64,000 bases of DNA from a virus, in the IMG/VR virus record IMGVR_UViG_3300034062_002027, one strand, 5' to 3'. Position 1 is the first letter of the stretch; the number at the start of each line of letters is the position of its first letter. The position numbers and the translations under genes were made by a program. Below are positions 2,277-63,130 of this stretch, piece by piece. Below the pieces are notes generated by a model that was not told the origin of the DNA, did not search any database, and worked only from the letters and a program-made list of their open reading frames with translations.

Positions 2277-4778
2277 TTAGTTCTCCGGCGATTTAGCAGC
2301 CGGTCTGTTTAAACGCTCCATCAGCTTAGCCTGCATCTTGGCGGATGCTTCCTGTTGCTTTTGGCTCATCTTTTGTTCAAACTCCTGCTGACGCTGAGCC
2401 ATCTCTTGCTCGTGCAGTTGTCTGTCCATGATCATTTCTTGCTGCATTTTTGCTGCGGCAACCTCCGGGTTCTCGCCCTGACGGTTTGCGGCCTCTTGGG
2501 CTTTGAGCTGAAGTTCTTGCTGGCGGACAGCCAAGTCGCCCTGAACCTTTTGCTCTTTGATTGAGGCGTCTTTCATCTTGATCTGCAGCTCTTGTTGCTG
2601 CATTTGGACCAGTGGGTCTTGGGCTTGTTGCTGGGCTTGCTGCTGAGCAGCCTGACCTTTGCTCTGAGCTAGAACCTGCTGGGATGCTTGAGCAACCAGA
2701 CGCGACAACTGAACCTCAACATCCTCTGGCAGGTCTTCATCGGGCTTGGGCATGGGCACGCCCAACTGCTCTTCGACCTTCTTGCGGTAGGCAAATGCCA
2801 AGTGCTCTGAGATGTGGGCCATGATTTCGGCCTGCATCTTTTGCGCTTGTGGGTTCTGACCAATCTGCGCGGCCATCAGGGGGTCTTGCATCAAAGCCAT
2901 GTGGACTGCGATGTGTGCGTCATGGTCTTGGTAGATGAACGCCTTGGTGGGCTTTCCGTTCAGAAATGCCATGTTCTCGCTGACTGGGTCGCGTGGCTTC
3001 ATGTCATCATCAATTGGAACCAGCTTGTCTGCGTTCTTGATTCCCAAGACCTCGATCATCTGACGGTGCAACTGCGGTAGGTCATAGATTTGAGGAGCCT
3101 GCGCGGCCAACTGAATCACAGCTTGGTACTGCATGATCCGCTGGGCCATTGTGGAGCTGTTTGGATCACTGACCGGGATAACCTCGACCATGTCGTAGTC
3201 TTCCCGCTTAGCCATGCGGTCACCGCCTTGGGGCTCGTACTCGTATTCGCTTGGGGTGTTGTCGCGGATGATTTCCTTGAGCAGTTTAAATTCCTGCTTC
3301 ATGGCGTAGTGGACCCGGGCTTGAACTGCGCTCATGGTTTTGAGTTGACGCTCCAGCAACGCCAGAGTTGTGCCGACAGGAGAGTTGGCACTCATGTCGC
3401 TGATGTTCATATCAGCGATGGAGCCCAGACGGCGGCCCTCTTCTGTGATGCGGTCAAGCAGAACAGCCAGAACTTGTGACGGCTCCTTGTATGGCAGGGG
3501 CATGATGTTGTCACGCACTGTGCCACCGGGCACGTCCACATCTCGCCATTCTCCGGGAGCGATTGGGGTGTCATCTCCTTTAATCCGCAGACCACGCGAC
3601 TTCAAGCCACCGGGCAGGTTGGACAGAGTTCCTGCGTCCACCAACTGACGGATCAGGGATGTACCCGCACGGGCATAGCCGCCGATCAGGTGGATGTAGC
3701 CGAAACCATAAGCGCCAAAACCGGGTACGTAGTCATACTGAACGAAATGCTGGCGCTTGATTTTTTTCTTGTCGGTCTCGTTCCAGTTACGGTAGACCGA
3801 CAGAACCTTGCTGGTTCCCTTGTCGATGGTAACGATGTAAGGAAGAGCAATGCCATCCTTGTCCTCGTACCCGGGCATGTCGTAGTCCACTTGAATCTCA
3901 AGGAACTGATAACGCTCGTCTTCGGTGACGGAGTAGCCCTGCTCTTCGGCTTTCTTTTTCTCCACATCGTTGTGGATCATGACGGGCTCACCCAGCTCAA
4001 CATCACGGTAGAAGCCTGCGACCTGAAGCTTCTTGACATCGTTCTTTGTCTTGCGCATCACATGGGTAACGCGCTCGGCAGAGCGAGCACCCGATGAGCC
4101 GTAGGGGATGACGATGTCTTCGGCGGGGCAGAAGATGGCTACCTGACGGCCAAGGCCGGGATCGAAGTAAACCTTCTTGAAGGCGGAGCCTGCCAGACCC
4201 AAGTTGAACAGCATGCGCTCATGCTCCGGGCGGTATTCAGGCATGCCGTCAACCAACTGGAAGTTCATGTCGGTGCGGACTCGCTCGGCTGCGTCTTCTT
4301 TCAATTTGTCGATTGCGCCAATGATCTGCGTTTTGACGGGGCCTTGAGCGGGGAAGGTCTCAATGATGGTCTCGGACTGGAAGCGGACTGCGGCTTCTGT
4401 CAGGAGGGTGGAGAAGACGCCACAGGCCCCCGTCCAAGGCTCGGTGCGCTCCTCATACTTCATGCCAAGGACCTCGAGCCCTCGCACATACATCTCTACC
4501 CATTCTTTACGAGATGAGATGTCAGATTCCACTTCTCCTACCAAGTCAGAGCCAAGCTTTTCAAGCTCACCCTCATCCATAAACTCTGCCAAGTTGGCCT
4601 CGAACGACTCCTCTTCTTCTGGCATAAGGTCGATTGCCATGCCGTCGATGCCGATGATTACATCGTCGGGGTTCTCGATGATGATCTCCACTGCGGGGGT
4701 GTCATCTTGAATCATGTCTGAGAAATCAATCCCCTCAGGGGCCGGGGAGAGAGACGAAACCATGCTGCTTGTTGCCAT
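2277..4778 (-). CDS. portal protein
   Basis: 833-aa ORF immediately downstream of terL, with size and position typical of a portal. The C-terminal ~170 aa are Q/A/E/K-rich and coiled-coil-like (QQQAQQQAQDPLVQMQQQELQIK...). Confidence 0.8.
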   Translation of the reverse strand: MATSSMVSSLSPAPEGIDFSDMIQDDTPAVEIIIENPDDVIIGIDGMAIDLMPEEEESFEANLAEFMDEGELEKLGSDLVGEVESDISSRKEWVEMYVRGLEVLGMKYEERTEPWTGACGVFSTLLTEAAVRFQSETIIETFPAQGPVKTQIIGAIDKLKEDAAERVRTDMNFQLVDGMPEYRPEHERMLFNLGLAGSAFKKVYFDPGLGRQVAIFCPAEDIVIPYGSSGARSAERVTHVMRKTKNDVKKLQVAGFYRDVELGEPVMIHNDVEKKKAEEQGYSVTEDERYQFLEIQVDYDMPGYEDKDGIALPYIVTIDKGTSKVLSVYRNWNETDKKKIKRQHFVQYDYVPGFGAYGFGYIHLIGGYARAGTSLIRQLVDAGTLSNLPGGLKSRGLRIKGDDTPIAPGEWRDVDVPGGTVRDNIMPLPYKEPSQVLAVLLDRITEEGRRLGSIADMNISDMSANSPVGTTLALLERQLKTMSAVQARVHYAMKQEFKLLKEIIRDNTPSEYEYEPQGGDRMAKREDYDMVEVIPVSDPNSSTMAQRIMQYQAVIQLAAQAPQIYDLPQLHRQMIEVLGIKNADKLVPIDDDMKPRDPVSENMAFLNGKPTKAFIYQDHDAHIAVHMALMQDPLMAAQIGQNPQAQKMQAEIMAHISEHLAFAYRKKVEEQLGVPMPKPDEDLPEDVEVQLSRLVAQASQQVLAQSKGQAAQQQAQQQAQDPLVQMQQQELQIKMKDASIKEQKVQGDLAVRQQELQLKAQEAANRQGENPEVAAAKMQQEMIMDRQLHEQEMAQRQQEFEQKMSQKQQEASAKMQAKLMERLNRPAAKSPEN

Positions 4779-4786
4779 GACGATCC

Positions 4787-6280
4787 TTAATAGAAGGCGG
4801 TTTTGCGCCGGAAATAACGCTGCTCTTCGGGCTCATCAGATTCAATCTGAATGAATCCACCTCTTCTAAATCGAAGCAAGGCTTGGCTTGTTGAGTCCAC
4901 AAGGTCGTCGTTTTCGCCGTTTGGGAACGCGGCCAACTCCTCCATCAACTCATCTGCCCATCGGGTTTCTGGACACCAAACAACTCCGGAAGCGAAAAGG
5001 TCTGAGATAGCGTTTACACGCGCAATCTTATCGCTTCCTTTGCCCGGTGTGTACTCCTCAAGCAAGATTCCTGTCTGCCGAAGCTCATAGATCAGCGGAG
5101 CGCCTGCCGCTTTCTTCTCCACAATCAGGGTATCTGGCTCCCATTCCTTGTACATCTCAAAAGCTTTTTGTTTAAGCTCAGGAAACTCCATGCGAGCTTT
5201 AAACGCATCCAGACAGATGATGTTGGTCTTCAGATTGCCCAAGCTGTCGGGGTGCTCGAAGATTCCCCACGTTGTGCAGGCTGAATAGTCTGCCCTGTTG
5301 GACTTTTCAAAGGCGGTATCCCAGCTTTGGATGATGTAATCGCACTGCGGAGCGGTGTCCGACTCCCAAATGCGCCACTGATCACGCTTAATGATCGCGC
5401 CTTCTTCGGATGTGGGGTTCTGTTGGTACTGCGCTTCCCATTTGGCGACAGGAATCTCAGCCTTGATGGCTTCAAGTTCCGTTTTCTTCCAAAATCCGGG
5501 CCACAAAGGGGTTCCTGAGGGCAAAATCGCAGGAAACTCTATAACTTCCCAGTCATCCACGCCATCTTTTGAGGCATTTTTAAGAATCTGCCCAGTCAAA
5601 TCTCTCTTTGACCAGCGCGTCATCACGATGATGATCGCTCCCCCGGGCTGTAAACGCTGACGAGGGCCGGATGTGTACCACTCATACACGTTGTCATACA
5701 CAGCGGGGTTGCCTTGCTTGGCCTCCTGCTCCGAATGCGGGTCATCAATGATCAGAAGGTCGGCTCCCTTACCCGTGACGGCTCCGCCGACACCAATAGC
5801 GAAGTAGTCGCCGCCTGCGTGGGTGTTCCAGCGACCTGCTGCCTTTGAATCAGAGGACAGTTTGGTGTCAAACACCCGGGAGAAGGCCTCAGAGGAGACC
5901 AAGTTCCTCACCTTCCGGCCAAAGCCTACGGCAAGTTCTGCGGTGTGGGCAGTCTGGATGATCTTTTTCTCCGGGAATCTGCCCAAGAACCACGCAGGCA
6001 GGAGGTAGGAGGCAAACTCAGACTTGGTGTGCCGAGGAGGCATGTTGATGATGAGCCTCTTGAGTTGCCCCTTGGCAACTCTCTCAAAAGCATTCGCCAT
6101 GATCTGGTGGTGCTTCCCAGAGATAAACCCCGGCCACATGTGGGAGGCGTAATAAATGAAGGACTCTTGGCACTTCTCCACTCTGTCGTACTCAAGAAGC
6201 ATCATGATCTTGGCACGCTCCGCCTCATCCACAAGAGGAATCAATGCCCGGTAATCCTCCACCTCCTTACGGCTCATCAT
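4787..6280 (-). CDS. terL: terminase large subunit
   Basis: 497 aa with P-loop-like NMPPRHTKS, Walker-B-like LLIIDDPHSE, and RNaseH-like nuclease motifs IIQSWDTAFE and ENDDLVDSTSQAL. Confidence 0.9.
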   Translation of the reverse strand: MMSRKEVEDYRALIPLVDEAERAKIMMLLEYDRVEKCQESFIYYASHMWPGFISGKHHQIMANAFERVAKGQLKRLIINMPPRHTKSEFASYLLPAWFLGRFPEKKIIQTAHTAELAVGFGRKVRNLVSSEAFSRVFDTKLSSDSKAAGRWNTHAGGDYFAIGVGGAVTGKGADLLIIDDPHSEQEAKQGNPAVYDNVYEWYTSGPRQRLQPGGAIIIVMTRWSKRDLTGQILKNASKDGVDDWEVIEFPAILPSGTPLWPGFWKKTELEAIKAEIPVAKWEAQYQQNPTSEEGAIIKRDQWRIWESDTAPQCDYIIQSWDTAFEKSNRADYSACTTWGIFEHPDSLGNLKTNIICLDAFKARMEFPELKQKAFEMYKEWEPDTLIVEKKAAGAPLIYELRQTGILLEEYTPGKGSDKIARVNAISDLFASGVVWCPETRWADELMEELAAFPNGENDDLVDSTSQALLRFRRGGFIQIESDEPEEQRYFRRKTAFY

Positions 6281-6507
6281 AGCGAAGCAACTTCCCGAAC
6301 ACTGCGGTCAATTACCCGGATGGAGTTGAACTGGTACGGCTTCACCGCAACCAATCCCTCATCCTTCAATTTATGGATGATCCGGTGAATGTTGGACTTA
6401 CTGCGCATGCTGAGACCCTTGGCAATCACAGCATAAGACGGCGATACACCATGAAGCTTGATGTAAGCCTTGATGAAGTCCAGCACCAATTTATGTTTCT
6501 CCGGCAT
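6277..6507 (-). CDS. winged-helix DNA-binding protein resembling the LexA N-terminal domain only (no peptidase domain)
   Basis: MPEKHKLVLDFIKAYIKLHGVSPSYAVIAKGLSMRSKSNIHRIIHKLKDEGLV matches the LexA-DBD/wHTH pattern. I prefer the start at 6507 (GAGG RBS) over the track start at 6564. The stop overlaps the terL start (ATGA). Confidence 0.6.
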   Translation of the reverse strand: MPEKHKLVLDFIKAYIKLHGVSPSYAVIAKGLSMRSKSNIHRIIHKLKDEGLVAVKPYQFNSIRVIDRSVREVASL

Positions 6508-6546
6508 AGCCACCTCGTGTAAACAGCGGTAGTTTAAACGCAAAAC

Positions 6547-6566
6547 GAACGTTCGTGCGAACATTC
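6547..6566. promoter_or_regulatory. imperfect 20-bp palindrome GAACGTTCGTGCGAACATTC, candidate operator upstream of the wHTH gene
   Basis: Contains the nested palindromes GAACGTTC and GTTCGTGCGAAC, about 40 nt upstream of the 6507 start, with a TATATAT stretch just upstream (6575-6590). Confidence 0.35.
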
Positions 6567-7446: not shown

Positions 7447-7500
7447 CGCAGTTCCCCTGTAGTTTCATCCAGCCTGTGTGTTTACACAGCACCGTTCTCA

Positions 7501-7595
7501 TTATCCACAGCCTGTGCATAACGTCAAGTTATCCACAGCCACCTGTGGACAGTGTGGATAACCTTGTCCACACCTTATCCCCAGCTTTATTCACA
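7501..7595. promoter_or_regulatory. DnaA-box cluster (candidate replication origin or DnaA-controlled promoter)
   Basis: Perfect TTATCCACA at 7501-7509 and 7529-7537, and inverted at 7553-7561. One-mismatch boxes are TTGTCCACA at 7564-7572, TTATCCCCA at 7575-7583 and TTATTCACA at 7587-7595. Confidence 0.6.
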
Positions 7596-7793
7596 CCCTC
7601 TCTTTTGTGTACCACAGTGCTACTGCAACCATCAAATGTAAGCGCGAACTGTATAAACATACATGGCTCTAGAATCGATTTAAACAGGCCTTCCAGCCAC
7701 TTTGACCCTTACCCGCCACTACCCCCCTAGCTTCTCATTTGACCCCCCTTGCTGGCCGTTTTAACGAATATCAGTACTTGCTTATCCTTAACG

Positions 7794-9462: not shown

Positions 9463-9531
9463 TTCCACCGTGATGCCCAGCGTGCTGGGTATTGCAGTGC
9501 AACCTGTTTAAACACCAACTGGAGAATGACC

Positions 9532-9738
9532 ATGAAATTTGTACACCACGACACGGGCGAATGGGTTCGCCACAACCACAACACTGCGGCAACACGCACA
9601 TCCAGCAGTGTCGTTGAATACGAAAACCTCAACGACATCGACAACAACTTTGTGCGGGACACCTTTGCATGGATGCTGGACAACGGCATGACTGTGACTA
9701 ACTGCGGCTCCAGCGTGTTTCAAATTCGCACCGCTTGA
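9532..9738 (+). CDS. hypothetical early protein (68 aa)
   Basis: ATG at 9532 (or 9526) follows AACTGGAGA. Confidence 0.5.
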   Translation: MKFVHHDTGEWVRHNHNTAATRTSSSVVEYENLNDIDNNFVRDTFAWMLDNGMTVTNCGSSVFQIRTA

Positions 9739-9785
9739 CCCCTTCCATTTAAACAAGATACAATCACTAGCACTGGAGAATTGAT

Positions 9786-10364
9786 ATGACTACAACCAAC
9801 CGTGAAGACTGGCTTTCAGCCGCCGTGAGTGAACTGCGCCCCTTCTTCGATGCAGTGGGTGCGCCCCTGCCAGCGAACGTTCGTGTGACCTGTGGTTTCC
9901 CGTCCAACGCCAAGCGCTCGGGTGCGATTGGTGAATGCTGGGCAGACACTGCCTCCGCTGATCAGACCTTTGAGGTTTTGATCAGCCCTGTGCTGGATGA
10001 CCCCTTGCGGGTGTTCGATGTGCTGGTGCATGAGTTGTGCCATGCCACTGCTGGGGCAATGAACCACGGTGTCAACTTCCAAAAGGTTGCCGCCTTGATG
10101 CACCTTGTGCCGAGCGCTGGCCCCAAGGGCTGGAAAGCCACTGGCCCGTCAGCCTCATTCATCCCTACATTCGGGTCAATCATTGACTCGCTGGGCTCAT
10201 ACCCTCATGCCGCCCTGACCATGTCCAACCGCAAGGTGCAGACCACAAGGATGCTCAAAGCAGTGTGCCCGTCCTGTGGGTACACCGTGCGCCTCACCTC
10301 TAAGTGGGCGGCCCTTGGCCTCCCTTCCTGCCCCGTCGATTCCGACACCCTCAACCTCGCTTAA
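9786..10364 (+). CDS. SprT-like zinc metalloprotease-domain protein with C-terminal zinc ribbon
   Basis: HExxH motif (VLVHELCHATAG) and C-terminal CPSCGYTVRLTSKW...SCP. CTGGAGA RBS. Confidence 0.6.
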   Translation: MTTTNREDWLSAAVSELRPFFDAVGAPLPANVRVTCGFPSNAKRSGAIGECWADTASADQTFEVLISPVLDDPLRVFDVLVHELCHATAGAMNHGVNFQKVAALMHLVPSAGPKGWKATGPSASFIPTFGSIIDSLGSYPHAALTMSNRKVQTTRMLKAVCPSCGYTVRLTSKWAALGLPSCPVDSDTLNLA

Positions 10365-10377
10365 TTGGAGACCTGCC

Positions 10378-11841
10378 ATGACTGACCTGCAACTCAAAAT
10401 CAAAATCTTGGAATTGCCCATCGCAGTGGTGCTGGGTGCTCATGCCCAGTATGGGCGGGGCACTTTTTCGGGCACACCGTCCGAGCAAAAGTCCAAGGCC
10501 GCTGATTACCTGATCTCTTGCATTCGGGCCAACAACCTGACCCTTGATGAAATCAGGAACGCCACACCCGTGAAGCCCGTGTCCACATCCGCTCCATCGG
10601 TGGATGTGTCTGCCATCACCGCCGTTGCCAACCGTGCCGAGGCGTCTGCCCTTGATGCCCACTCCAGCCTGAGTGCCTTGCGACTCACCCTGCGGGATGT
10701 GGAGAGCCAACTCACCTGTGAGATCAGAGACCGCCGTGATGACATCCTTGATGTCAAAGATGCCCTCGACAAGATGGCCTTCCAAGTCGGACAGGTTTCC
10801 ATTGATGACCGTAAGGTTCAAGATGCCGTTGCCAAGGTGGTCGCTGATGCGTTTAAACCCTTTGAGCAAGCCGTGAAAGCCGCCGGGGCTCAGGCTGTAG
10901 TCGCAGACCTTGCATCTGTCCAAGTGGTGGATGTCAAAACCTGCTATGACGCTTTTGGTGTCGATGTGGTGGATACCAAGGGAAACCCCCTGAACGTGAG
11001 CATCTGGAATGACCCGTCTGCCCCTGCGGTTGACCCTCACTTCATCTGGACTGATGACATTCTCCAGCACCTGATCTTGTCTCAGGACTCGGGTGAGTCG
11101 GTCTGGTTCGGTGGGCCAAAGGGTACAGGTAAATCCGAGACCGCCCGTCAGTTTGCCGCCGTTACGGGCCGTGCGTTTAAACGCATCAACTTCCACAAGT
11201 ACACCAGCGCCGAGGATTACATCGGTGCGGTGGGTTTGGAAAACGGGCAGACCGTGTTCAAGCGAGGCGACTTCCTCGCCGCCTTTACGCACCCCTCGAC
11301 CGTCATCCTGTTGGATGAGGTGACCAACGCTGACCCCGGTGAACTGGCCCCGTTGAACGGCTTTTTGGAGCCCAACAGCGCCGTGTCATTCGGTGGGTCT
11401 GTCCAGACCCGTGCCCCCGGTGTGCTGGTGTTTGCCGCTGACAACACGCTGGGCAATGGTGACGATACAGGCCGCTACGCTGGCACACGCCAGATGAACA
11501 GCGCCCTTGTTGACCGCTTCGCCCGTGTGGTGCAGTTTGACTACCTGCCCCTAGCCTCTGAGGTGGAAGCCTTGGTGCGTCACACTGGATGCAACCCCAA
11601 GCTTGCCCTGCACATCCTTGAGGCTGTCCATGTGGCTCGGCGTCAGGTGCTGACAGGCGAGGTGATAGATGCTCCCTCCATTCGGTCGGTGATCGCCTTC
11701 ATTCGTGCCTTGCGTGTCTTGCCTGTAGACAAGGCATGGGCGACAACCATTGCCGCCCGTCAACCAGCCGAGTCCCTTCCGGGCTTGTCTGCTATCTATG
11801 CGTCTTGCATCTGCGAGACAACAATCAACAACTACTTGTGA
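10378..11841 (+). CDS. AAA+ ATPase, MoxR/CobS-like (AAA_5 type)
   Basis: Walker A GGPKGTGKSE and Walker B VILLDEVTNA, then LVFAADNT...NSALVDRFARVV. The start at 10378 follows TTGGAGACC; the track start at 10276 would overlap the upstream gene. Confidence 0.8.
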   Translation: MTDLQLKIKILELPIAVVLGAHAQYGRGTFSGTPSEQKSKAADYLISCIRANNLTLDEIRNATPVKPVSTSAPSVDVSAITAVANRAEASALDAHSSLSALRLTLRDVESQLTCEIRDRRDDILDVKDALDKMAFQVGQVSIDDRKVQDAVAKVVADAFKPFEQAVKAAGAQAVVADLASVQVVDVKTCYDAFGVDVVDTKGNPLNVSIWNDPSAPAVDPHFIWTDDILQHLILSQDSGESVWFGGPKGTGKSETARQFAAVTGRAFKRINFHKYTSAEDYIGAVGLENGQTVFKRGDFLAAFTHPSTVILLDEVTNADPGELAPLNGFLEPNSAVSFGGSVQTRAPGVLVFAADNTLGNGDDTGRYAGTRQMNSALVDRFARVVQFDYLPLASEVEALVRHTGCNPKLALHILEAVHVARRQVLTGEVIDAPSIRSVIAFIRALRVLPVDKAWATTIAARQPAESLPGLSAIYASCICETTINNYL

Positions 11842-11848
11842 GGTTCCC

Positions 11849-13462
11849 ATGAACATCGAAACCATCCTGACCCGCCCCTCTGTGCGTGGTCTTGAATTCC
11901 GTCTCGGCCTTGAAGCCTACGCCCACAAGGTGGGGTCTGCCCTTGGCCTGTCCCGTGTGCGTGTCCTCTGGAGGGCAGATGTCCAGACTGCTGGCATCAA
12001 TGCCAACGGCGACCTGTACTTGGCGGGTGTGCCTGATGATGCCAAGGTGAGCCGCGCCTTGGTGGTCAAGTACGCCGCCTATGTGGTGCATGAGTTGTTG
12101 CACCACAAGTACACCGACTTTGATGTCATGTCCCCTGAACAGTACATTCGCACCCTGCACAATGCGGTGGAGGATGGCTGGATTGAGAACACCGGGATTG
12201 CCTCTGGCTTGCTGGGTAACATCGGCCCCCTGCTGGGTGAGATGATCGACACCATGACCCGTGAGGCTTTGGCGACCGTCAAGGATTGGAACGATCCCCG
12301 CCAGTACCCCTACATCCTCGCTGTGCATTGCCGTAAACACGCCACTGTCAAGTGCCCCACCAACCCCAAGTTGACCGCCATCTTCGATGAGGCCGCACGT
12401 TGGTGCTTGACTGCAAAGGACAGCAACCAGACCCTCGCAATTGCCGAGTGGGTTTATGAGCAGATCAAGCAAGCCAGCAAGGATGAGCCCAAGGGTGATG
12501 GCAAGAAAGACAAGGACAAGGACGGCAAGGACGGCCCAAGCAAGCCCTCAGACGGGCCTACAAGCCCCGATCAGCCCGAGGGTGAGGACAAGGGTGCAGA
12601 CAAGGCCGATAAGGGCTCTGACGGCCCCGCTGGCCCCGTGCAATCACCCGAGGGTGTCGAGGCCGACCCCGTGGAGCCCAAGCTTGGCGAGGGTGGCATT
12701 GCTGGCGCTTACTCCACTGACGTTTCACTCAGGGATGAGCGCTTCCACCTGTCCAGCCGCACCATCCCTGACTTGGTCAACGCACCCGTCCCTGCCAAGC
12801 TTCGCTATGAAGTTAAGCGCCTGTTTGATGACTCGGGTCTGTCTGACTTCACCCGCAACCGCAAGGCCGGGGTTGTCAACATCCATGCCCTGCCAACAGT
12901 GGCCACTGGCAACGACCGTGTGTTTAAACGCCGCCTTGAGGTGGAGGGCATTGACTCTGCGGTGGTGATCTGCCTTGATGTCTCGGGCTCCATGTTTGAG
13001 GTGGAGTCTTGGAGACCAAAGCCCCTGATCGGCCCCGCTGTTCAGGCTTGCCGTGCCCTGCTGGAGACGCTGGATGCGGCTGGGGTCAAGACTGCAGTGC
13101 TGTGCTTTGGTGGGCAGATTTCAGTGCCCAAGGGCTTCAACAAGAACGTCAAACAGGCAAGCACCCTGCTGGGCACGGTACAGGCTGGCGGTGGTACGAA
13201 CGACTACGCCGCCCTGCGCTACGCCCACCAGATGCTGGCCCAGCGCCCCGAGCGCCGCAAGATCGCCTTTGTGATCACTGACGGGTACGGCAAGCCTGAT
13301 GCTGTGAAACAGCAAGTCGCATCGGGTAAAGCCTTGGGTGTGACAACCATCGGCATCGGCATCGGTGCTGATGTGTCGTGGATATACGGGCAAGCAGTGA
13401 CTGTCCGGGACATTGCCGACCTCGGCAACGCAAGCTTCAAGCAGATCAAGCTTGCGGCATAA
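11849..13462 (+). CDS. VWA-domain protein, CobT-like, with N-terminal HExxH motif
   Basis: MIDAS-like motifs VICLDVSGSM...GGTNDYAAL...FVITDGYG. The N-terminal region has VVHELLHHKYTD, and the central linker is K/D/G/P-rich. The ATG at 11849 lies 7 nt after the AAA+ stop. Confidence 0.75.
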   Translation: MNIETILTRPSVRGLEFRLGLEAYAHKVGSALGLSRVRVLWRADVQTAGINANGDLYLAGVPDDAKVSRALVVKYAAYVVHELLHHKYTDFDVMSPEQYIRTLHNAVEDGWIENTGIASGLLGNIGPLLGEMIDTMTREALATVKDWNDPRQYPYILAVHCRKHATVKCPTNPKLTAIFDEAARWCLTAKDSNQTLAIAEWVYEQIKQASKDEPKGDGKKDKDKDGKDGPSKPSDGPTSPDQPEGEDKGADKADKGSDGPAGPVQSPEGVEADPVEPKLGEGGIAGAYSTDVSLRDERFHLSSRTIPDLVNAPVPAKLRYEVKRLFDDSGLSDFTRNRKAGVVNIHALPTVATGNDRVFKRRLEVEGIDSAVVICLDVSGSMFEVESWRPKPLIGPAVQACRALLETLDAAGVKTAVLCFGGQISVPKGFNKNVKQASTLLGTVQAGGGTNDYAALRYAHQMLAQRPERRKIAFVITDGYGKPDAVKQQVASGKALGVTTIGIGIGADVSWIYGQAVTVRDIADLGNASFKQIKLAA

Positions 13463-13500
13463 ACCAACCGCCCCTTCGGGGGCTTTCAAGGAGAATTGAA

Positions 13501-13680
13501 ATGAACGCAGAACATGAATGGCACATTGAGTTGGACTACATCCTGAGCAAGGTGCGCTACGCCAAAGAGATTCTCGGTGAGGGCGGTCTCGACTGCGCCT
13601 ACCGAGCCAACAAGGAACTGGAGCCTGTGCTGTTTAGGCTTCAAGAACTGTGCGAGATAACCAAAGGAGAGACAGCATGA
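13501..13680 (+). CDS. hypothetical protein (59 aa)
   Basis: AAGGAGA RBS before ATG 13501. The stop overlaps the next start (ATGA). Confidence 0.5.
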   Translation: MNAEHEWHIELDYILSKVRYAKEILGEGGLDCAYRANKELEPVLFRLQELCEITKGETA

Positions 13681-14432
13681 AGACATTCACACCAGACTGG
13701 ATTGCATGGATCAAGACCAACGTGGAGGCTGGTGTAAACAAGGATGCCATCTTCAAGATACTGCTGGACGCTGGTCATGCTCACGACTACATCCAAAAGG
13801 AGATGGGCTACACACCCAGCCTTTGGCTTGGAGTGTCAGACAACCCTCGCAGGGCATTGCATGAATTCCTTCCGAACTACACCCGCACAGGCTTTACAAA
13901 GCTTCCAGCCCCGACCCTTTTGTTTCGCAAGATACTGGAGTTTTATCGTGTGGGGCTGGAGTCTCAAAAGGACGAGTTTGTGGAGGGGGAGTTCATTGTC
14001 AACCCCTCCACGCCGAGCCGAGCGCCCAGCACCCTGATTGACCTGCCTGATGAACTGCGCACAGAGATACACGACACCCTCAAGCCACTGATTGAGGCGT
14101 GGTGCGGCCTGTCTGTTGAGCCGTCCTATGTGTACGGGATTCGCCTGTACAGGGACAAGGCCGTACTCAAGCCGCACCGTGACCGCATTGAGACCCACAT
14201 CTTTGGGGTCATCTTGAACGTTGACCAGAACGTAAGGGAGGACTGGCTTTTGATGATTGAGGATCATGCGTACAACGAGCATCAAATCACCCTCAAGCCG
14301 GGGGAGATGTTGTTCTACGAGAGCGCCCGTTTAAAGCATGGCAGACCAATCCCGCTCGAGGGTAGCGTCTTCGCCAATATCTTTTCCCATTTCACACCCA
14401 CTGGTTACATACCGCCAAAGGAGACAACATGA
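13677..14432 (+). CDS. 2OG-Fe(II) oxygenase, prolyl-4-hydroxylase-like
   Basis: HxD...H facial triad candidates (KPHRDRIETH ... ARLKHGRP) in a jelly-roll-sized C-terminal half. 4-nt overlap with the upstream gene. Confidence 0.65.
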   Translation: MKTFTPDWIAWIKTNVEAGVNKDAIFKILLDAGHAHDYIQKEMGYTPSLWLGVSDNPRRALHEFLPNYTRTGFTKLPAPTLLFRKILEFYRVGLESQKDEFVEGEFIVNPSTPSRAPSTLIDLPDELRTEIHDTLKPLIEAWCGLSVEPSYVYGIRLYRDKAVLKPHRDRIETHIFGVILNVDQNVREDWLLMIEDHAYNEHQITLKPGEMLFYESARLKHGRPIPLEGSVFANIFSHFTPTGYIPPKETT

Positions 14433-14548: not shown

Positions 14549-14781
14549 TGACCGTAGAGCAGGTGACAGATGATGACTTGTTTAAACGCATGAGCAGTGC
14601 GTACGACCAAGTGGTGGCGGTGCTTGATGCGCACAAACTTGACAGGGATGAGGGCTTTTCCTTGATGGCGCAGATTCTCTGCCAGTTGTCGCATGACAAC
14701 CGTGAGGACTTTATATGGAAGATGGACAAGTTTTACAGCATGGAGCGCTTTTTGCGCCCACAACCAACGGAGGTGCATTGA
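14548..14781 (+). CDS. hypothetical protein (77 aa)
   Basis: ORF-track ORF with a CTGGAGACC RBS, coupled to its neighbours. Confidence 0.55.
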   Translation: MTVEQVTDDDLFKRMSSAYDQVVAVLDAHKLDRDEGFSLMAQILCQLSHDNREDFIWKMDKFYSMERFLRPQPTEVH

Positions 14782-15011
14782 TGATAGAACTGATTCAAAA
14801 ACTGCGTGACGAGCATCTTAAGGTCACGATCCACGACATTGGCGAGGACAAGCCCGTGTTTGCTCTGGCTGTTGTGATTGACGAGCCTTTAGACGTTTGG
14901 TATGTGGCATTTGCGATAGGGTATGGGTTCACGCCTAAAATTATCGGCAAACTGCTGGTGTTCCCGCAATTGGTGGTGGACGTAAAGACCTACGACTTCA
15001 TCTGTGCGTAA
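14781..15011 (+). CDS. hypothetical protein (76 aa)
   Basis: Internal ATG at 14781 overlaps the previous stop (TGATGA). Confidence 0.5.
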   Translation: MIELIQKLRDEHLKVTIHDIGEDKPVFALAVVIDEPLDVWYVAFAIGYGFTPKIIGKLLVFPQLVVDVKTYDFICA

Positions 15012-18943: not shown

Positions 18944-19064
18944 GTTAAAGTTTAAACGATGGTGGCTCAGCCTGCAAGCTCATCTGGTGAGCCTGCGTGC
19001 AAGCCTGCGTGCCTTTCGTGTAAACTGCACTGGCGGGAACCTCCCCCCGCAGTTGCTTCTCCTT

Positions 19065-25887: not shown

Positions 25888-25898
25888 AAGGATTTATC

Positions 25899-33716: not shown

Positions 33717-33719
33717 GAC

Positions 33720-37440: not shown

Positions 37441-42114
<4,674 letters not shown>

Positions 42115-49453: not shown

Positions 49454-50830
49454 TTAAAATTTATTGAAAAACGGACTTAAAGCATAACCTACTTTTTGCT
49501 GTACGTTGGTGGAGATTGTTTGGCCGACTACACCGTTTCGCGGAACAAAATGTATATCGCCATTAGGCGCAAGGACGCCGCCAGCGTATGCGTCTAATAT
49601 CGTGTAAACCAATGAATAAGTTGAGACTACTCCAGCAGCAGATATTTTCTGACCTCGGTTGGCGTTATAAGAAACAAAATGTATATCACCGTTGGGAGCA
49701 AGGACACCGCCAGCGTATGCCTCACTTCTTGTGTACACTAGCGAGTAGGTAGAGACTACACCCGCTGCTGATATTTTTTGGCCTCTGTTTGCGCTTTGCG
49801 GAACAAAATGAATATCACCATTTGGGGCTAGGACGCCGCCTTCGTATGCGTTTGATGCCGTGTACACTAGAGAGTAAGTTGAGACTACTCCAGCAGCAGA
49901 TATTTTCTGACCTACTACTGCGTCAAGTGGAACAAAATGTATGTCTCCATTTGGGGCTAAAACTCCACCTGCGTATGCTCCGCTTGCTGTGTAAACCAAG
50001 CTATACGTTGAAACAACTCCCGCTGCGGATATTTTTTGACCTACTGCTGCGCCATTAGGAACAAAATGTGTATCTCCGTTGGGAGCAAGGACGCCGCCTT
50101 GGTATGCTCCGTTTGCTGTGTAAACAAGTGAATAAGTTGAAACAACACCGGATGCAGAAATCTTCTGTCCTCGTCTGCCGCTAAGAGGCACGAAGTGAAT
50201 ATCTCCGTTGGGGGCGAGGACACCTCCGCTGTATGCAACTGATGTTGTGTAGACCAGTGAATAGGTTGATACAACTCCAGCAGCAGATATCTTCTGCCCT
50301 CTGTTGGCTGAATAAGGTACGAAGTGTATATCCCCATTAGGGGCTAAGACACCGCCAACGTATGCGCTTGCTGTTGTGTACACCAGTGAATACGTACTGA
50401 CAATCCCACCCACACCATTGTTGTTGAACGGCACACCATTGACCACCCCGGCGTCAAGGTACTTCTTCAGGTTTGTCCACTCCACCAGATTGGTGCCGAC
50501 CGATGAGTTGTCCGCTGTGGGCACTGTGCCCTGAGTAGCATCAGCCGGGTAGGTGGTGATAACGTCTTTATCGCCTGCGCTCCAGTTTACGGCAGCGTTG
50601 CTGTTGCTTGATTCAAGGATCGTGGTGCGTGCCAGCGTTGTGCCAGAGGCGGTGTATGTGCCAATGCCGATTTCCCAGTCCGTACCGTCAGTCACGCTGT
50701 AGTACGTGGTGTTCCCATCCCCAACCACGGAGAAGTCTTGGAACCCATCAGCGGCTGTTCCCAGCGTGTACGTGCCAGTGCCCGTTGTGGTCGTTGTTGT
50801 CTTGACCCGGTCGTTCAGAACCAATGCCAT
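49454..50830 (-). CDS. tail fibre / receptor-binding protein paralogue 3 (seven 42-aa repeats, beta-propeller-like)
   Basis: N-terminus [24 protein letters not shown]..., then 7 copies of [43 protein letters not shown]. Confidence 0.7.
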
Positions 50831-50839
50831 GGTGCGTCC

Positions 50840-52228
50840 TTAAAACTTGTTCAGATAGCTGCTCAGGCAGACATCGGATGGGAAGGGGATGGCGGGGCAG
50901 GTAGAGATTTTTTGACCTAAAGCGGCACTATGGGGGATAAAATAAATATCTCCATTAGGTGAGAGAATGCCGCCAATATAAGAACTTCCTGTTGTATAAA
51001 CTAAAGAATAGGTTGAAACTACTCCTGCTGCTGATACTTTCTGGCCTCTTGCGGCGCTGAGTGGAACAAAATGAATATCTCCATTAGGGGCCAATAAGCC
51101 TCCTTGATATGCGTTTCCAGCCGAATAAATTAATGAGTACGTAGAAACCACACCTGCCACTGATACTTTTTGCCCAATAAGATTATCTGTACTTGGAATA
51201 AAATGAATATCCCCGTTGGGGGCTAGAACGCCACCAGTATAAGCACTAGATGCTGTATAAATTAACGAATAAGTTGAAACAACCCCCGCTGCTGATATTT
51301 TTTGACCAACTTCTGCGCTTTTTGGAACAAAATGAATATCTCCATTGGGTGCTAAGACTCCGCCTTTATAAGCGCCGTTTATTGTATAAACTAAACTATA
51401 AGTAGAAACTACGCCTACTGCCGATACTTTCTGCCCTTTATTTGCATCTTCTGGAATAAAATGTATATCCCCGTTAGGCGCAAGTACGCCGCCAGCATAG
51501 GCGCTTCCCGCTGTATAAACAAGGGAGTATGTAGAAACAACGCCAGATGAATTTACTTTTTGACCTCCGACGGCAAAAGCAGGTACAAAATGAATATCGC
51601 CATTTGCGGCCAATACACCACCTTTATAAGCATTTGCTCTTGTGTAAACAAGTGAGTATGTAGAAACAACTCCAGTTAAAGTGTTTATTTTCTGACCTAT
51701 GTTGGCAGATAGAGGAACAAAATATATATCGCCGTTAGGTGCGAGTACGCCTCCTGTATATGCTCCAGTTGTTGTATAAATCAAAGAATACGTACTAACA
51801 ATCCCCGCTGTATCATTGTTATTAAACGCCACACCGCCGTTCACGCTGAGCTGGAGCTTCTTCTGGAAGTTCTGGAACGCAACGCCGTCCGTGCCAATGC
51901 TGCTGTTGTCTGCTGTAGCGTTTGCCAAGCCCGACGTTTCCGCAGGCAGGGGAATAAATACCGTCTTGTCACCAGCACCCCAGTTGACCAACGCACCGCT
52001 GTTGCTAGATGCAAACACCTGTTGACGGCTCAGGGTCGTGCCCGATACCGTGTAAGTGCCGATCCCAACTTCCCAGTCAATATTGTTTGTAATGGTGTAG
52101 TAGGTTTGGTTGCCGTCGCCGACGTTGGTGAAGTCTTGGTAGCCAACAGAGGCCGCTCCAAGCGTAAGCGTGCCAGTCCCTGTGGTGGTCGTGGTGACCT
52201 GAACGCGATCTTTGAGTAAGAATGTCAT
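50840..52228 (-). CDS. tail fibre / receptor-binding protein paralogue 2 (AT-rich repeat domain)
   Basis: Start at [20 protein letters not shown] (52228). It has seven repeats as in the other paralogues. The repeat-coding part (~50840-51830) is visibly more AT-rich than the surrounding sequence. Confidence 0.7.
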   Translation of the reverse strand: MTFLLKDRVQVTTTTTGTGTLTLGAASVGYQDFTNVGDGNQTYYTITNNIDWEVGIGTYTVSGTTLSRQQVFASSNSGALVNWGAGDKTVFIPLPAETSGLANATADNSSIGTDGVAFQNFQKKLQLSVNGGVAFNNNDTAGIVSTYSLIYTTTGAYTGGVLAPNGDIYFVPLSANIGQKINTLTGVVSTYSLVYTRANAYKGGVLAANGDIHFVPAFAVGGQKVNSSGVVSTYSLVYTAGSAYAGGVLAPNGDIHFIPEDANKGQKVSAVGVVSTYSLVYTINGAYKGGVLAPNGDIHFVPKSAEVGQKISAAGVVSTYSLIYTASSAYTGGVLAPNGDIHFIPSTDNLIGQKVSVAGVVSTYSLIYSAGNAYQGGLLAPNGDIHFVPLSAARGQKVSAAGVVSTYSLVYTTGSSYIGGILSPNGDIYFIPHSAALGQKISTCPAIPFPSDVCLSSYLNKF

Positions 52229-52230
52229 GG

Positions 52231-53616
52231 TCAGAACTTGTTCAAAAATGAGCTGAGGCACACGCCCAAGCCCAAAGGTTGACCGGGATTTGTGGAGATT
52301 GTTTGGCCCCTATTGGCAACGTCTGGAACAAAGTGTATATCACCGTTGGGAGCAAGAACACCTCCAGCGTATGTGCTTGTTGCTGTGTAGACGAGAGAGT
52401 ATGTACTTACAACCCCAGAGGCAGATATTTTCTGGCCTACGTTGGCACTAGCCGAAACAAAATGTATGTCTCCATTTGGGGCTAGGACGCCGCCTTGGTA
52501 TGCGGATGTTGTTGTATAAACTAAAGAGTAGGTTGATACAACCCCAGATGGAGATATTTTTTGACCTTGGTTGGCGCTATAAGGCACAAAGTATATATCT
52601 CCGTTAGGAGCAAGCACGCCACCTTCGTATGCGGATGTTGTTGTATAAACTAAAGAGTAGGTTGATACAACACCTGTAGCTGAAATCTTTTGTCCAACAG
52701 CAGCATTTCTCGGGACAAAATGAATGTCTCCGTTGGGGGCGAGAACCCCACCAGCGTATGCGGCTGATTCTGTATAAACAAGAGAATACGTTGAAACAAC
52801 ACCCGCAACAGATATTTTCTGTCCTCGGTTGGCATTATACGGAACGAAATGAATATCACCGCTAGGTGCAAGGACGCCGCCTTGGTATGCGGTTGTTGTG
52901 GTGTAGACAAGCGAATACGTACTCACAACTCCAGAGGCAGAGATTTTCTGGCCTCTGTTTGCGCCTGAAGGAATAAAATGAATATCTCCGTTAGGGGCAA
53001 GCACCCCGCCTTGGTATGCGCCTGTTGATGTATAAACCAATGAATAAGTAGAAACTACTCCAGCAGCGGATATCTTCTGGCCTCTGTTGGCGCTACGAGG
53101 CACAAAGTAAATATCCCCATTAGGGGCAAGTACGCCGCCAACGTATGCGCCCCCAGCATTTGTATAAACCAAACTGTAAGTGCTGACGATTCCGTTCGTG
53201 CCGTTGTTGTTGAACGTCTGCCCACCTACAACACCTTGGTTTAGCGCAGCCTGCAAAGCTGACCAGCCTGCCAGATCGGCGCCAATGTCCGAGTCGTCGC
53301 AAAAAGGAATGCCCGGTTGAGTGACCGCCGAGGGTTGAGCGCACAGCACGTCCTTGGTTCCAGCACCCCAGTTCACCAGAGCGTTGGAGTTGGATGAGGC
53401 GTAGACCTGATCTCGGCTCAAGGTGGTTCCTGACGCTGTGTACGTCCCCAGACCTGTTTCCCAGTTGATTTGGTCTGTGATCAGGTAGTACGTGGTGTTG
53501 GCGTCGCCAATGGCGGAGAAAGCCTGATACCCAGTTGCAGCAGCGCCGAGCGTGAGTGTCCCCGTACCAGTCGTCGTGGTTGTGGACTTGACGCGGTTTT
53601 TGAGGACGAGAGCCAT
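52231..53616 (-). CDS. tail fibre / receptor-binding protein paralogue 1
   Basis: Start at [20 protein letters not shown] (53616, TAATG overlap with the upstream stop). Seven repeats. Confidence 0.7.
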   Translation of the reverse strand: MALVLKNRVKSTTTTTGTGTLTLGAAATGYQAFSAIGDANTTYYLITDQINWETGLGTYTASGTTLSRDQVYASSNSNALVNWGAGTKDVLCAQPSAVTQPGIPFCDDSDIGADLAGWSALQAALNQGVVGGQTFNNNGTNGIVSTYSLVYTNAGGAYVGGVLAPNGDIYFVPRSANRGQKISAAGVVSTYSLVYTSTGAYQGGVLAPNGDIHFIPSGANRGQKISASGVVSTYSLVYTTTTAYQGGVLAPSGDIHFVPYNANRGQKISVAGVVSTYSLVYTESAAYAGGVLAPNGDIHFVPRNAAVGQKISATGVVSTYSLVYTTTSAYEGGVLAPNGDIYFVPYSANQGQKISPSGVVSTYSLVYTTTSAYQGGVLAPNGDIHFVSASANVGQKISASGVVSTYSLVYTATSTYAGGVLAPNGDIHFVPDVANRGQTISTNPGQPLGLGVCLSSFLNKF

Positions 53617-57721: not shown

Positions 57722-58425
57722 CAGTAGCCACCGCTTCCTATGCGAGTGGCGCGTGGCACAAACCTGACTGCAGCCTTCTCACGGTCTTCGGACGAGGCGA
57801 GGTCCCAAGCTTCGTCGTATTGTTGCTTCAAAATTGGCAGGCGGTCCATCGACCCCGGAATTTTCAGCGCAAGGTGGTAAGCCAGCCCAGCCGTCATAGC
57901 CTCATAGAAGCGAAAAGGCATATCCATTGTGTTTACACCGCCCCCAGCGTCTTGCATGCGGCGCAGACGCCAGTACACAAACACGTAAGGCTGCGAGTTG
58001 TCTGGAACGGGCCAGACGTTTATTCGGGGGGAGTCAGTCAAGCGTTCAATCCAAACCTGAATTGGACGGGCTTGCTGGAGCTTGTTAGGAATCGTGGCGT
58101 ATGTAGAGACACTGATCCGGGTGATGGTCAGGTCTGCTTGTGTTGAAACGTTACCCGCGCCCGTGCGGATGACGTGCTCCAAAAGGTCCACTGTGTCCGC
58201 AGGAAGGTTGTACGTTGCTTGGCCGGGGGTCAAATTAATCGACCCCTGCTCATACGTGAACATGTTTAAACCACGATTTGCCCACTGGGCGAACATCAGG
58301 TTCATGGATCGACTGGCCGTGCGTAAGTCGTAGCCCGTGCGCAACTCACCACCAGCGCGTTCAAACGCTTCCTCCACGATCTCCGTGAGGTCCATGTTAA
58401 ACGCTGCTGTGCCTGATGTTGCCAT
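57721..58425 (-). CDS. putative head-tail adaptor/connector protein (234 aa)
   Basis: The N-terminus FNMDLTEIVEEAFERAGGELRTGYDLRTASRSMNLMFAQWANRGLN is a pattern I recall from podovirus adaptor proteins. Positioned between the head and tail genes. Confidence 0.45.
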   Translation of the reverse strand: MATSGTAAFNMDLTEIVEEAFERAGGELRTGYDLRTASRSMNLMFAQWANRGLNMFTYEQGSINLTPGQATYNLPADTVDLLEHVIRTGAGNVSTQADLTITRISVSTYATIPNKLQQARPIQVWIERLTDSPRINVWPVPDNSQPYVFVYWRLRRMQDAGGGVNTMDMPFRFYEAMTAGLAYHLALKIPGSMDRLPILKQQYDEAWDLASSEDREKAAVRFVPRATRIGSGGY

Positions 58426-60953: not shown

Positions 60954-60954
60954 G

Positions 60955-62501: not shown

Positions 62502-63035
62502 TTAAGCGTCAGCAAACGGAGTGACAACAGAGCCAGAGGCCAGCAAAACACCAGTGACCATGTACTTGTTAGCCGCCAAGACAGTCACAGTGATGGTGGA
62601 GCCAGCAATACCGCCAGTGGTCGAGCCGTCCAAGTTGATGACATCGTTGGTTGCGCCGGGGGCAAAAGCCGTCACTGCGCCAGAGCTGTCGGTGTCAACC
62701 ATGATAATGGAGCCAACAAACTTGTCAGTGCCGTTGGTCTTGATAGCCACGGCAGTGGCAGCAGTCTCAATGACAAACGTGTAGCTTGTACCCACGTTGT
62801 TAGAGGTGCTTGGGTCTTGGCCGGGACCAGATGTCACAGGATTGGCTGTGGCATTGATGGTAGGTAGTGTGATGACCAGCGTAGCGTCATTGGTACGAAT
62901 GGTCTTGCCAGCGTACGAAGCCACATCCAGAGTCACGGTATTGGTGCCGTTAGCCAGATTGACAATAGAAGCTGGGCCTTGGGTAATAAAGCCAGCCAAT
63001 GAACGGACTGGGCCTTGGAAAGTAGTCAGAGCCAT
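62502..63035 (-). CDS. abundant head protein, possible decoration protein (177 aa)
   Basis: First gene after the capsid-gene terminator. T/A/G/V-rich and Ig-like in composition. A hairpin follows it at ~62476-62496. Confidence 0.5.
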   Translation of the reverse strand: MALTTFQGPVRSLAGFITQGPASIVNLANGTNTVTLDVASYAGKTIRTNDATLVITLPTINATANPVTSGPGQDPSTSNNVGTSYTFVIETAATAVAIKTNGTDKFVGSIIMVDTDSSGAVTAFAPGATNDVINLDGSTTGGIAGSTITVTVLAANKYMVTGVLLASGSVVTPFADA

Positions 63036-63130
63036 GATGATTCCTCACATGCGAGTTGAGGCGTCCTGTCTGCATGTCGTCGGCCCGGAGCCGTCAGGAA
63101 CGCCGGATAGTCCGGGTTTAAACAAATATA

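Follow-up and report, generated by a model that had tools for sequence, protein, structure and literature searches.

We report that the octamer palindrome GTTTAAAC, which recurs throughout one end-to-end stretch of viral DNA (IMG/VR record IMGVR_UViG_3300034062_002027; all 64,000 nt of it are called the window below), is probably the cognate site of a protein made by the same phage, a 192-aa SprT-like protein encoded at 9786-10364, and that this protein would act as a global regulator. The association of motif and protein across phage genomes is well supported by sequence comparison; direct binding, reading of the site by a dimer, repression as the output and a role for the metalloprotease domain are what we infer from it.

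An earlier note on this DNA had listed 24 exact copies of GTTTAAAC and put the chance expectation at about one or fewer. A recount recovered all 24 at the same starts, and both figures hold: dinucleotide-preserving shuffles of the window gave a mean of 0.82 copies with a maximum of 3, while Markov models of orders 1-3 predict 0.6-2.3 sites. GTTTAAAC is the top over-represented octamer of the window. Its copies are spread unevenly, just as the note had it: 20 in 2-33 kb, one in 34-57 kb and three in 57-64 kb.

By our own gene calls (self-trained, and used throughout) 17 copies are inside genes, somewhat fewer than the 20 or so noted earlier, and 7 of the 24 are intergenic or outside any called gene. 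A codon-aware null, proposed in the note as a check, was made by permuting synonymous codons inside each called gene; 1000 permutations gave 1.28 ± 1.0 in-gene copies, with a maximum of 5, against the 17 observed. Synonymous choice could write the octamer at 35 places over all genes, and 17 of these (49%) are occupied; the leucine codon TTA, only 5% of Leu codons, is chosen in 10 of 10 NGT-Leu-Asn contexts. GTTTAAAC is therefore selected at the DNA level, against codon bias, as had been proposed. The accompanying observation that in-gene copies are always read as Phe-Lys or Leu-Asn is true as well (half are Phe-Lys, nine are Leu-Asn in the frame T-TTA-AAC), but the rule is forced, since the third frame, GTT-TAA, contains a stop.

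The remark that phages usually deplete palindromes is apt for this genome: 18 of the 64 hexamer palindromes are absent from the window, among them CAGCTG (∼30 expected), GCCGGC (23-30), GTGCAC (28), GCGCGC (24) and CACGTG (21), and CCWGG and RGATCY are absent too. TTTAAA, unlike the purged hexamers, is six-fold enriched. In a genome that purges palindromes the excess of GTTTAAAC thus stands out as a sharp exception. CCWGG is also missing from nearly all relatives of the clade (L087-L138; 30-60 expected); such extreme avoidance of restriction sites implies hosts rich in restriction-modification systems. The exception is L119, with 102 copies of CCWGG; most motif copies in L119 end in T (GTTTAAAT).

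Three variants are enriched in the window along with the exact word: GTTTACAC (21 copies), GTTTAAAT (11) and GTTTAAAG (7). Among 573 unique sites pooled from the window and its relatives, 84% have a pyrimidine at -1, a preference which makes the fuller motif a 10-bp palindrome, YGTTTAAACR, and replaces the flanks SGTTTAAACS described earlier. When relatives are aligned, the window variants at 6517, 7480 and 7964 match exact GTTTAAAC in L004, L019 and L003; as GTTTACAC aligns to exact GTTTAAAC at homologous positions, the two forms appear functionally interchangeable, and we take GTTTACAC and GTTTAAAT as tolerated variants of the motif. The four GTTTACAC copies that the note had placed in the control regions are present. 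One-mismatch variants in general are more numerous than the twenty or so estimated there, many of them coming from 129-bp coding repeats at 49.4-53.6 kb; most copies of GTTTATAC and GTTTCAAC, and four of GTTTACAC, have this origin and were set aside as unrelated to the motif. The repeats (43 aa, in tandem) are in three consecutive minus-strand genes of 458, 473 and 461 aa (49454-53616), which probably encode tail-fibre-like repeat-domain proteins.

The window represents a podovirus-like genome that is circularly permuted and nearly complete. Among its products are a portal, large and small terminase subunits (TerL and TerS), a 2303-aa polyvalent protein, a T7 gp4-like primase-helicase, a Sak single-strand-annealing protein, a PD-(D/E)XK exonuclease, RusA and a CobS/CobT-like pair. 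The same phage is found at 100% identity in several metagenome assemblies; a 20-kb megablast search against cultured phages gave no match, and none of the cultured phages is a near relative. The isolates closest by portal and primase-helicase, cyanophages MinM2, Pag-Yong1 and Pra-JY27 (guanine-cytosine content, GC, 69%), have zero copies and are uninformative on the motif. Counting in related phages, another check put forward in the note, gave a uniform result: GTTTAAAC is strongly enriched in 52 of 52 IMG/VR loci anchored by the primase-helicase (62-89% amino acid identity, GC 41-59%) and ranks first or in the top four octamers in each, one relative having 32 copies in 21.7 kb versus 0.38 expected.

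Sites turn over between these relatives. At ∼78% nucleotide identity some keep their position, and others are gains that took two or three synonymous changes at once; when 43 sequences of the primase-helicase gene are aligned, sites fall in 7 columns, at 1.3 sites per gene, sometimes with amino acid changes. Such positional turnover indicates that selection keeps the number of sites more than their position. The motif also has a clear genomic boundary. All 22 loci with TerL at least 66% identical to that of the window combine the early module with 1-8 copies in the upstream 4 kb, while none of the 19 loci with TerL at most 62% identical has a copy. To the latter group belong L002 and L036, in which the portal is 86-91% identical to that of the window, TerL is only 58-59% identical and the early module is unrelated. 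The motif thus goes with the TerL/early-replication module, not with the structural one. A sharp mosaic boundary is seen between the portal and TerL genes (2277-6280).

Which protein of this module goes with the motif could be seen from more distant genomes. A scan of IMG/VR for motif arrays revealed many contigs with still denser dispersed sites, e.g. 21 in 6.3 kb (L371) or 34 in 14 kb. These dense contigs share almost nothing with the window; the only window protein common to them is the SprT-like protein, 27-39% identical over its full length. No other window protein is present in 11 of 11 divergent motif-bearing genomes and in 0 of 2 motif-free controls.

Homologs were found by tblastn in 164 cultured phages, where they are annotated as 'SprT-like protease', and the motif was counted in a sample of these. 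Dinoroseobacter phage R26L (GC 63%) has 14 copies of GTTTAAAC versus 0.08 expected, an excess second only to that of its own sub-word CGTTTAAA, and 10 copies of CGTTTAAACG; Burkholderia phage Mica has 7 versus 0.21 (rank 3). In two actinophages the form in excess is GTTTACAC, the top octamer both in Microbacterium phage Zeta1847 (GC 71%; 22 versus 0.11) and in Arthrobacter phage MaGuCo (GC 68%; 15 versus 0.32). Curtobacterium phage Cappuccino, syntenic with MaGuCo over about the whole genome and still carrying a sigma-like helix-turn-helix (HTH) protein and an integrase, has no SprT-like gene and zero copies of every variant. Motif-bearing phages thus sampled infect Actinobacteria and Alpha-, Beta- and Gammaproteobacteria, at GC 34-72%. 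One of them, R26L (L398), carries at 25888-35076 a 7-deazaguanine DNA-modification set (QueC/D/E/F, FolE and a tgt/DpdA-like gene); no such genes are among the scanned window proteins, and the motif is therefore independent of this modification.

The reverse selection gave a similar picture. Among 80 viral contigs drawn solely for encoding a homolog, a word of the motif family is the single top octamer in 36; over all homolog-bearing loci, a family word reaches z >= 8 in 123 of 154 (80%), the words being GTTTAAAC in 109, GTTTACAC in nine, CTTTAAAG in three and GTTTAAAT in one. The sample is a small part of a family with ∼3,200 clusters at 50% identity.

The protein itself has two recognizable parts. 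The HExxH signature, HELCH (H82-E83-L84-C85-H86), is invariant in homolog alignments, and a C-terminal zinc ribbon, C161-x2-C164...C182-P, is conserved and modelled as a beta-hairpin plus a helix. The match to Pfam SprT-like is weak, below the gathering cutoff (E = 0.004; 17.5 versus 25.6 bits), the match to PHROG 6361 is strong, and comparison of the sequence with PDB chains gave no significant match. A confident AlphaFold2 model (predicted local distance difference test score 85) shows a minimal metallopeptidase domain, a linker and the zinc ribbon; its best Foldseek match is abylysin (4JIU; probability 1.0, E = 7e-3), followed by a weaker match to CapP.

In three lineages (L412, L416 and L409) GTTTAAAC is replaced by CTTTAAAG, with 28 copies versus 0.42 expected, 25 versus 0.06 and 7 versus 0.08, respectively. 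The change touches the outer G of the motif (G to C). Just N-terminal to the zinc ribbon, in a conserved QTTR segment, every one of the 127 unique proteins of the other types has R155, and the same position is A, S or Y in all three CTTTAAAG-type proteins (Fisher p = 3e-6, computed on three proteins that represent one or two independent events and without phylogenetic correction). L416 is 52% identical to the other two. Arginine is the residue that typically contacts guanine; taken together, the covariation at R155 and the tie to a specific motif imply sequence-specific recognition.

The placement of sites is what one would expect of operators. In 42 of 97 unique loci a cognate site precedes the SprT-like gene by no more than 200 nt, with 23 expected from local density (p = 2e-5); the commonest distance to the conserved N-terminal anchor is 40-60 nt, and in two of the three switched lineages it is CTTTAAAG that occupies this position. 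In the window the corresponding element at 9747, inside a predicted promoter, is a putative autoregulatory operator of the SprT-like gene. About half of the sites in Zeta1847 are in the spacer of a conserved predicted promoter, TTGCGC-N4-GTTTACAC-N5-TATGAT, the sites of MaGuCo overlap the predicted -10/+1 region, and the asymmetric variant of the actinophages is biased in orientation with respect to transcription (27 sense, 10 antisense).

Sites also gather in arrays. Many relatives have two to four copies starting directly after the stop codon of the primase-helicase gene, and pairs of motifs bracket two perfect DnaA boxes 5′ of a gene for a LexA-like winged HTH (wHTH) protein; the motif flanks DnaA boxes in L100/L103/L106, in L179 and in the non-homologous contig L215. 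Iteron-like arrays were seen in three contigs: six intergenic copies at 24-26 bp spacing (L120, 10297-10422), seven sites phased at exactly 21 bp (L263, 399-525; a contig in a Betaproteobacteria metagenome-assembled genome, MAG) and nine sites in ∼340 bp at a contig end (L277, 7450-7787). These three contigs have no detectable homology to window proteins except, where present, to the SprT-like one.

The following mechanism could account for these observations. The SprT-like protein would bind the short palindrome, probably as a dimer, with Arg155 reading the outer guanine of each half-site. It would occupy an operator in the spacer of its own promoter, giving autoregulation, as well as the control-region arrays beside DnaA boxes and 3′ of the primase-helicase gene, and in addition dozens of single sites in early and replication genes on both strands. 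It would then be a genome-wide regulator or silencer of the early region, comparable with the L5 'stoperator' system or the dispersed P1 C1 operators, and selection for many sites would have brought in substitutions, most synonymous and some not, wherever the protein sequence leaves room for them. The metalloprotease domain might cleave the protein itself or a partner, or might serve as a DNA-tethered protease. One could speculate further that the phage SprT-like family has evolved a tunable recognition of YGTTTAAACR, with GTTTACAC and CTTTAAAG among its variants, and coats or patrols the early/replication half of the genome via docking sites of its own writing; to this extended version we would give slightly less than an even chance.

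Several facts speak against the SprT-like protein as the reader, or against the role proposed for it. Proteins of the SprT/Spartan family are known as DNA-dependent proteases without sequence specificity, and a contiguous palindrome of 8-10 bp is unusually compact for a dimeric regulator. Enrichment is not universal among genomes with the gene: 31 of the 154 homolog-bearing loci have no strong family word, and in E. coli phage ECO1230-10 the excess is weak (5 versus 0.72). The covariation at R155 counts few events. Five sites are in the gene of the late polyvalent protein, which a pure 'early-gene silencer' would not predict, and a role in replication would suit the arrays next to DnaA boxes and behind the primase-helicase gene as well as one in transcription would. 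No recognizable integrase was found in the window phage, so that the role of a lysogeny repressor, if it applies to the actinophages, is not simply transferable. Finally, the SprT-like gene may always travel with a small, fast-evolving binder that is invisible to tblastn.

The last point leads to the alternative that survives best, although we consider it unlikely: the motif is read by a different phage protein, a small HTH or ribbon-helix-helix protein or the LexA-like wHTH protein (its gene is upstream of TerL), with the SprT-like metalloprotease as an obligate partner that does not bind the motif but might, for instance, cleave the repressor as ImmA, IrrE and CapP do. Small DNA-binding proteins do diverge fast and may evade tblastn; the weak fold match is to CapP, a DNA-responsive protease that cuts its cognate repressor; in actinophages a sigma-like HTH protein adjoins the SprT-like gene; and motif sites are present 5′ of the wHTH gene of the window. 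However, no other window protein is common to the divergent motif-bearing genomes, and where the outer base of the motif changes, so does a residue in the SprT-like protein itself. The sigma-like HTH protein was rejected as the reader, being present in motif-free Cappuccino. We also rejected the LexA-like wHTH protein: it co-occurs with the motif within the clade but is missing from unrelated motif-rich contigs, and its promoter carries another conserved palindrome, GCGAACGTTCGC, better suited to a LexA-like dimer. As for the small proteins encoded at 21.6-26.8 kb, suggested as binders in the earlier note, the evidence favours the SprT-like protein instead.

A second alternative, which we rate a shade lower still, is that the sites serve replication, as iterons or for the loading, titration or handcuffing of a phage initiator, be it the SprT-like protein or the primase-helicase. 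In its favour are the phased arrays of L263 and L120, the arrays behind the primase-helicase stop codon in many relatives, and the perfect DnaA boxes flanked by the motif in the window (7480-7600) and in the loci named above, including the non-homologous one. Yet the sites of the window are single or paired and mostly intragenic, and dozens of single intragenic sites would be atypical of iterons; in other phages many sites are in promoter spacers or at +1. The replication modules of motif-bearing phages are unrelated (Pol I with primase/helicase in actinophages, a P2-like module in Mica), and most dense contigs have no primase-helicase homolog. It should be added that replication as the purpose departs from regulation by the SprT-like protein in output only, not in the identity of the reader. 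Two other ideas were set aside: a primase recognition site or a Chi-like site is unsupported by the regional bias and by the placement in promoters and arrays, and a pac-site reading, via the 212-aa protein encoded upstream of the wHTH gene (small terminase, PHROG 51), was dropped because motif-bearing phages have unrelated terminases.

Two further explanations we regard as effectively excluded. That the palindrome is a property of the host lineage, i.e. an iterated palindrome like highly iterated palindrome 1 (HIP1) of cyanobacteria, due to biased mutation or repair in the host (methyltransferase plus very-short-patch repair), a host factor site or a DNA-uptake sequence, acquired by amelioration, is very improbable. 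HIP1 does show that octamer palindromes can be about as dense (PMC5861425), and the relatives of the window come from similar freshwater habitats; but the same motif occurs in phages of four bacterial groups over a wide range of GC, mosaic relatives with the structural module and another early module have zero copies, as does Cappuccino, and the copies are spread very unevenly along the genome. When 185,579 species genomes were scanned for triple arrays, a search in which sparse dispersed enrichment is undetectable, the result was scattered tandem repeats and no enriched lineage among the matches listed. The earlier note had offered both an iterated palindrome of the host lineage and a DNA-uptake-like signal; across host phyla it is a phage gene that the motif accompanies, and the uptake signal is unsupported. 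Very-short-patch repair as the origin was rejected too: the expected deamination product, GTTTAAAT, is enriched, not depleted. The phage-like matches of the scan were short contigs in freshwater Burkholderiaceae and Betaproteobacteria MAGs, a weak hint of the host.

The least credible is a target for restriction-modification or a nuclease (PmeI/MssI, nicking or homing, Chi-like), or else a -1 frameshift heptamer, U-UUA-AAC: GTTTAAAC is indeed the PmeI site, L119 swaps most full palindromes for GTTTAAAT with the core kept, as if dodging an 8-bp cutter, nine in-gene copies are in the slippery frame and the phage has recombination genes of its own, but enrichment in a genome that purges restriction sites is contrary to the prediction for such a target, scans against Pfam and PHROGs, which took in the small open reading frames in part, turned up no methyltransferase, type II endonuclease or clear site-specific nuclease among the window proteins, which disfavours the modification or nicking target named in the note, Chi-like signals are unexpected in promoter spacers or phased arrays, and frameshifting cannot explain a set in which half of the in-gene copies are Phe-Lys and seven copies are non-coding. 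Of the options that the note had listed, a protein-binding site agrees best with the data.

The sites of the window and the features next to them are collected in Table 1.

Table 1. Sites of the motif in the window, with adjacent genes and signals
Feature	Position	Strand	Context	Relatives and remarks
Exact GTTTAAAC	2307-2314		Portal gene, 3′ end (R-L-N)	Kept in L001, L002, L003, L006
Variant GTGTAAAC	6517		Adjoins the 6532 site	Exact GTTTAAAC in L004
Exact site	6532-6539		5′ of LexA-like wHTH gene	Kept in L019, L004, L001, L003
Variant GTTTACAC sites	6723, 6806, 7480, 7964		Control regions	7480 and 7964 are exact GTTTAAAC in L019, L003
DnaA-box cluster	7500-7600		Adjoins the 7480 site	TTATCCACA x2, TGTGGATAA, degenerate copies
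Exact site	9506-9513		4 nt 5′ of Shine-Dalgarno ACTGGAGA of small early gene 9526-9738	
Predicted sigma70-like promoter	9735-9764	+	TTGACC-18-TACAAT	Best of the early region
Variant ATTTAAAC	9747-9754		In promoter spacer, 22 nt 5′ of SprT-like ATG	Exact GTTTAAAC in L019
SprT-like protein gene, 192 aa	9786-10364	+	PHROG 6361	Candidate motif reader
CobS/MoxR-like AAA ATPase, CobT-like VWA protein, 'ferrochelatase' PHROG match	10315-14432		Directly 3′ of SprT-like gene	
Exact sites	10851, 11175, 12922 (span 10851-12929)		CobS-like AAA and CobT-like VWA genes, Phe-Lys frame	11175 and 12922 kept in L019; 10851 a lineage-specific gain (CTTCGCAC in L019)
Exact site	14580-14587		No called gene; between ferrochelatase-like gene and small gene 14715-15011	
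Exact in-gene sites	16151, 16445		Primase-helicase gene	
Exact in-gene site	17007-17014		HNH-like gene adjoining primase-helicase gene	
Exact site	18950		Long intergenic region	Variant GTGTAAAC at 19018
Exact site	19328-19335		RusA gene	
Exact site	21188-21195		Sak single-strand-annealing protein gene (G-L-N)	
Exact site pair, 110 bp apart	25755, 25865 (to 25872)		Intergenic, 5′ of gene 25884-26222	
2303-aa polyvalent-protein gene	26805-33716	-	ADP-ribosyltransferase (ART-PolyVal) and LPD38 domains	Last gene of long leftward operon
Five exact sites	28073, 28902, 31254, 31968, 32075 (to 32082)		Inside 2303-aa polyvalent-protein gene	
Exact site	39123-39130		Sole one in 34-57 kb structural region	Only 6 synonymous opportunities in the region
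Exact in-gene site	57479			Several synonymous changes vs relatives; GTTCAAGC in L019
Exact in-gene site	58264-58271		GT-TTA-AAC in window	Several synonymous changes vs relatives; GTTCAGGC in L002, GC-CTG-AAC there
Exact intergenic site	63116-63123		Beside terminator hairpin	Kept in L004, L001

The DnaA boxes lie in the intergenic DNA from which the TerS/late operon and the early genes diverge; from its sequence this region may be a replication origin or a DnaA-regulated switch or control region. A second conserved palindrome, TTGCGAACGTTCGCA, was seen at 6545-6566 and at ∼18830, and also in the relatives L104, L109 and L126. Its first copy is in the promoter region of the LexA-like wHTH gene (6277-6564, minus strand), and it is probably the operator of the wHTH protein itself. 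GAACGTTC occurs four times in the window versus 0.8 expected.

A literature search found, in the library covered, no paper describing GTTTAAAC as an iterated palindrome or as a phage motif, and the paper on Microbacterium phage diversity does not mention it. The protein, on the other hand, has been noticed. All members of Cluster AZ of Arthrobacter phages encode a SprT-like protein with HEXXH and a small predicted DNA-binding domain, matched by HHpred at a probability above 99% to the mammalian SprT protease domain; the phages are temperate, with the immunity repressor not identified, and no DNA site has been reported for the protein (10.1101/2025.05.26.655371). In phage Liebe a natural frameshift truncates the SprT-like protein (an N-terminal truncation) and plaques are clear, while its sibling Maureen, differing by 4 nt, forms turbid plaques (10.1101/2025.05.26.655371). 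These plaque data are consistent with the role of a regulator, and the motif supplies the missing candidate operator.

In the Cluster AZ/EB/EH actinophages, where no immunity repressor has been identified, the SprT-like protein is a candidate for this role, with the motif as its operator. If the extended version above is true, the protein could be a new class of immunity repressor or global silencer in which a protease domain is the switch; alternatively, it could be a DNA-tethered protease that frees phage DNA of bound host proteins (defence nucleases, silencers, stalled complexes). In both cases the Spartan/SprT superfamily would have its first sequence-specific member. Regulation by this protein would also show that binding sites of a regulator can fill half of the synonymous coding opportunities and override codon bias in a genome from which palindromes are otherwise purged. 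The pairing of a common uncharacterised family (PHROG 6361) with a specific motif makes a hypothesis of function that is directly testable in tractable phages: Burkholderia Mica, Arthrobacter MaGuCo, Maureen and Liebe, Microbacterium Zeta1847, Dinoroseobacter R26L and R5C, and E. coli ECO1230-10. The natural switch of the outer G to C, with loss of the arginine, offers a simple handle for testing or re-engineering recognition, and the motif could be used as a signature of this regulatory system in metagenomic phage contigs.

Among known systems, cyanobacterial HIP1 (GCGATCGC; 0 copies in the window) is similar in being an octamer palindrome enriched by one to two orders of magnitude, in coding sequence and against codon preference. 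HIP1, however, is a genome-wide property of host chromosomes, while the motif described here tracks a phage gene and is absent from close relatives without that gene. ImmA, IrrE and CapP are likewise zinc metalloproteases tied to the transcriptional switch of a mobile element or defence operon, and the model of the SprT-like protein has its weak fold match to CapP; in those systems a separate XRE-type repressor is both reader and substrate, whereas here no conserved partner was detected and R155, which appears to be the determinant of DNA reading, is in the protease-family protein. With SprT, Spartan and Wss1 the protein appears to share its architecture, an HExxH metallopeptidase core followed by a small zinc-binding, putatively DNA-binding module, as judged from sequence and model. 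Spartan and Wss1 bind DNA non-specifically and degrade DNA-protein crosslinks; here the family, a putative protease, is tied to a specific motif of 8-10 bp.

As regulatory networks, the P1 C1 operators and, in RK2, the KorA operator and the KorB OB sites are close in kind: a single regulator is served by many palindromic or near-palindromic sites across a mobile genome. The operator of RK2 KorA, GTTTAGCTAAAC, has a half-site, GTTTA, that appears to resemble the half-site here. The P1 and RK2 systems differ in having ∼7-20 sites, nearly all in promoters, and HTH readers, with no saturation of synonymous positions and no protease domain. Cluster A mycobacteriophages have stoperators, ∼24-30 genome-wide for the L5 repressor gp71, which are asymmetric, 13 bp long and recognized by an HTH repressor; most of them fall in short gaps between genes. 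The system proposed here would resemble them in one phage regulator having an early-promoter operator plus dozens of dispersed sites, conserved as a class and varying in position, and, in the asymmetric variant of the actinophages, in the orientation bias; it differs in the site, a palindrome of 8-10 bp on either strand and mostly in coding sequence, in the candidate reader, a SprT-like/zinc-ribbon protein, and in its range, which spans several host phyla and includes apparently lytic phages.

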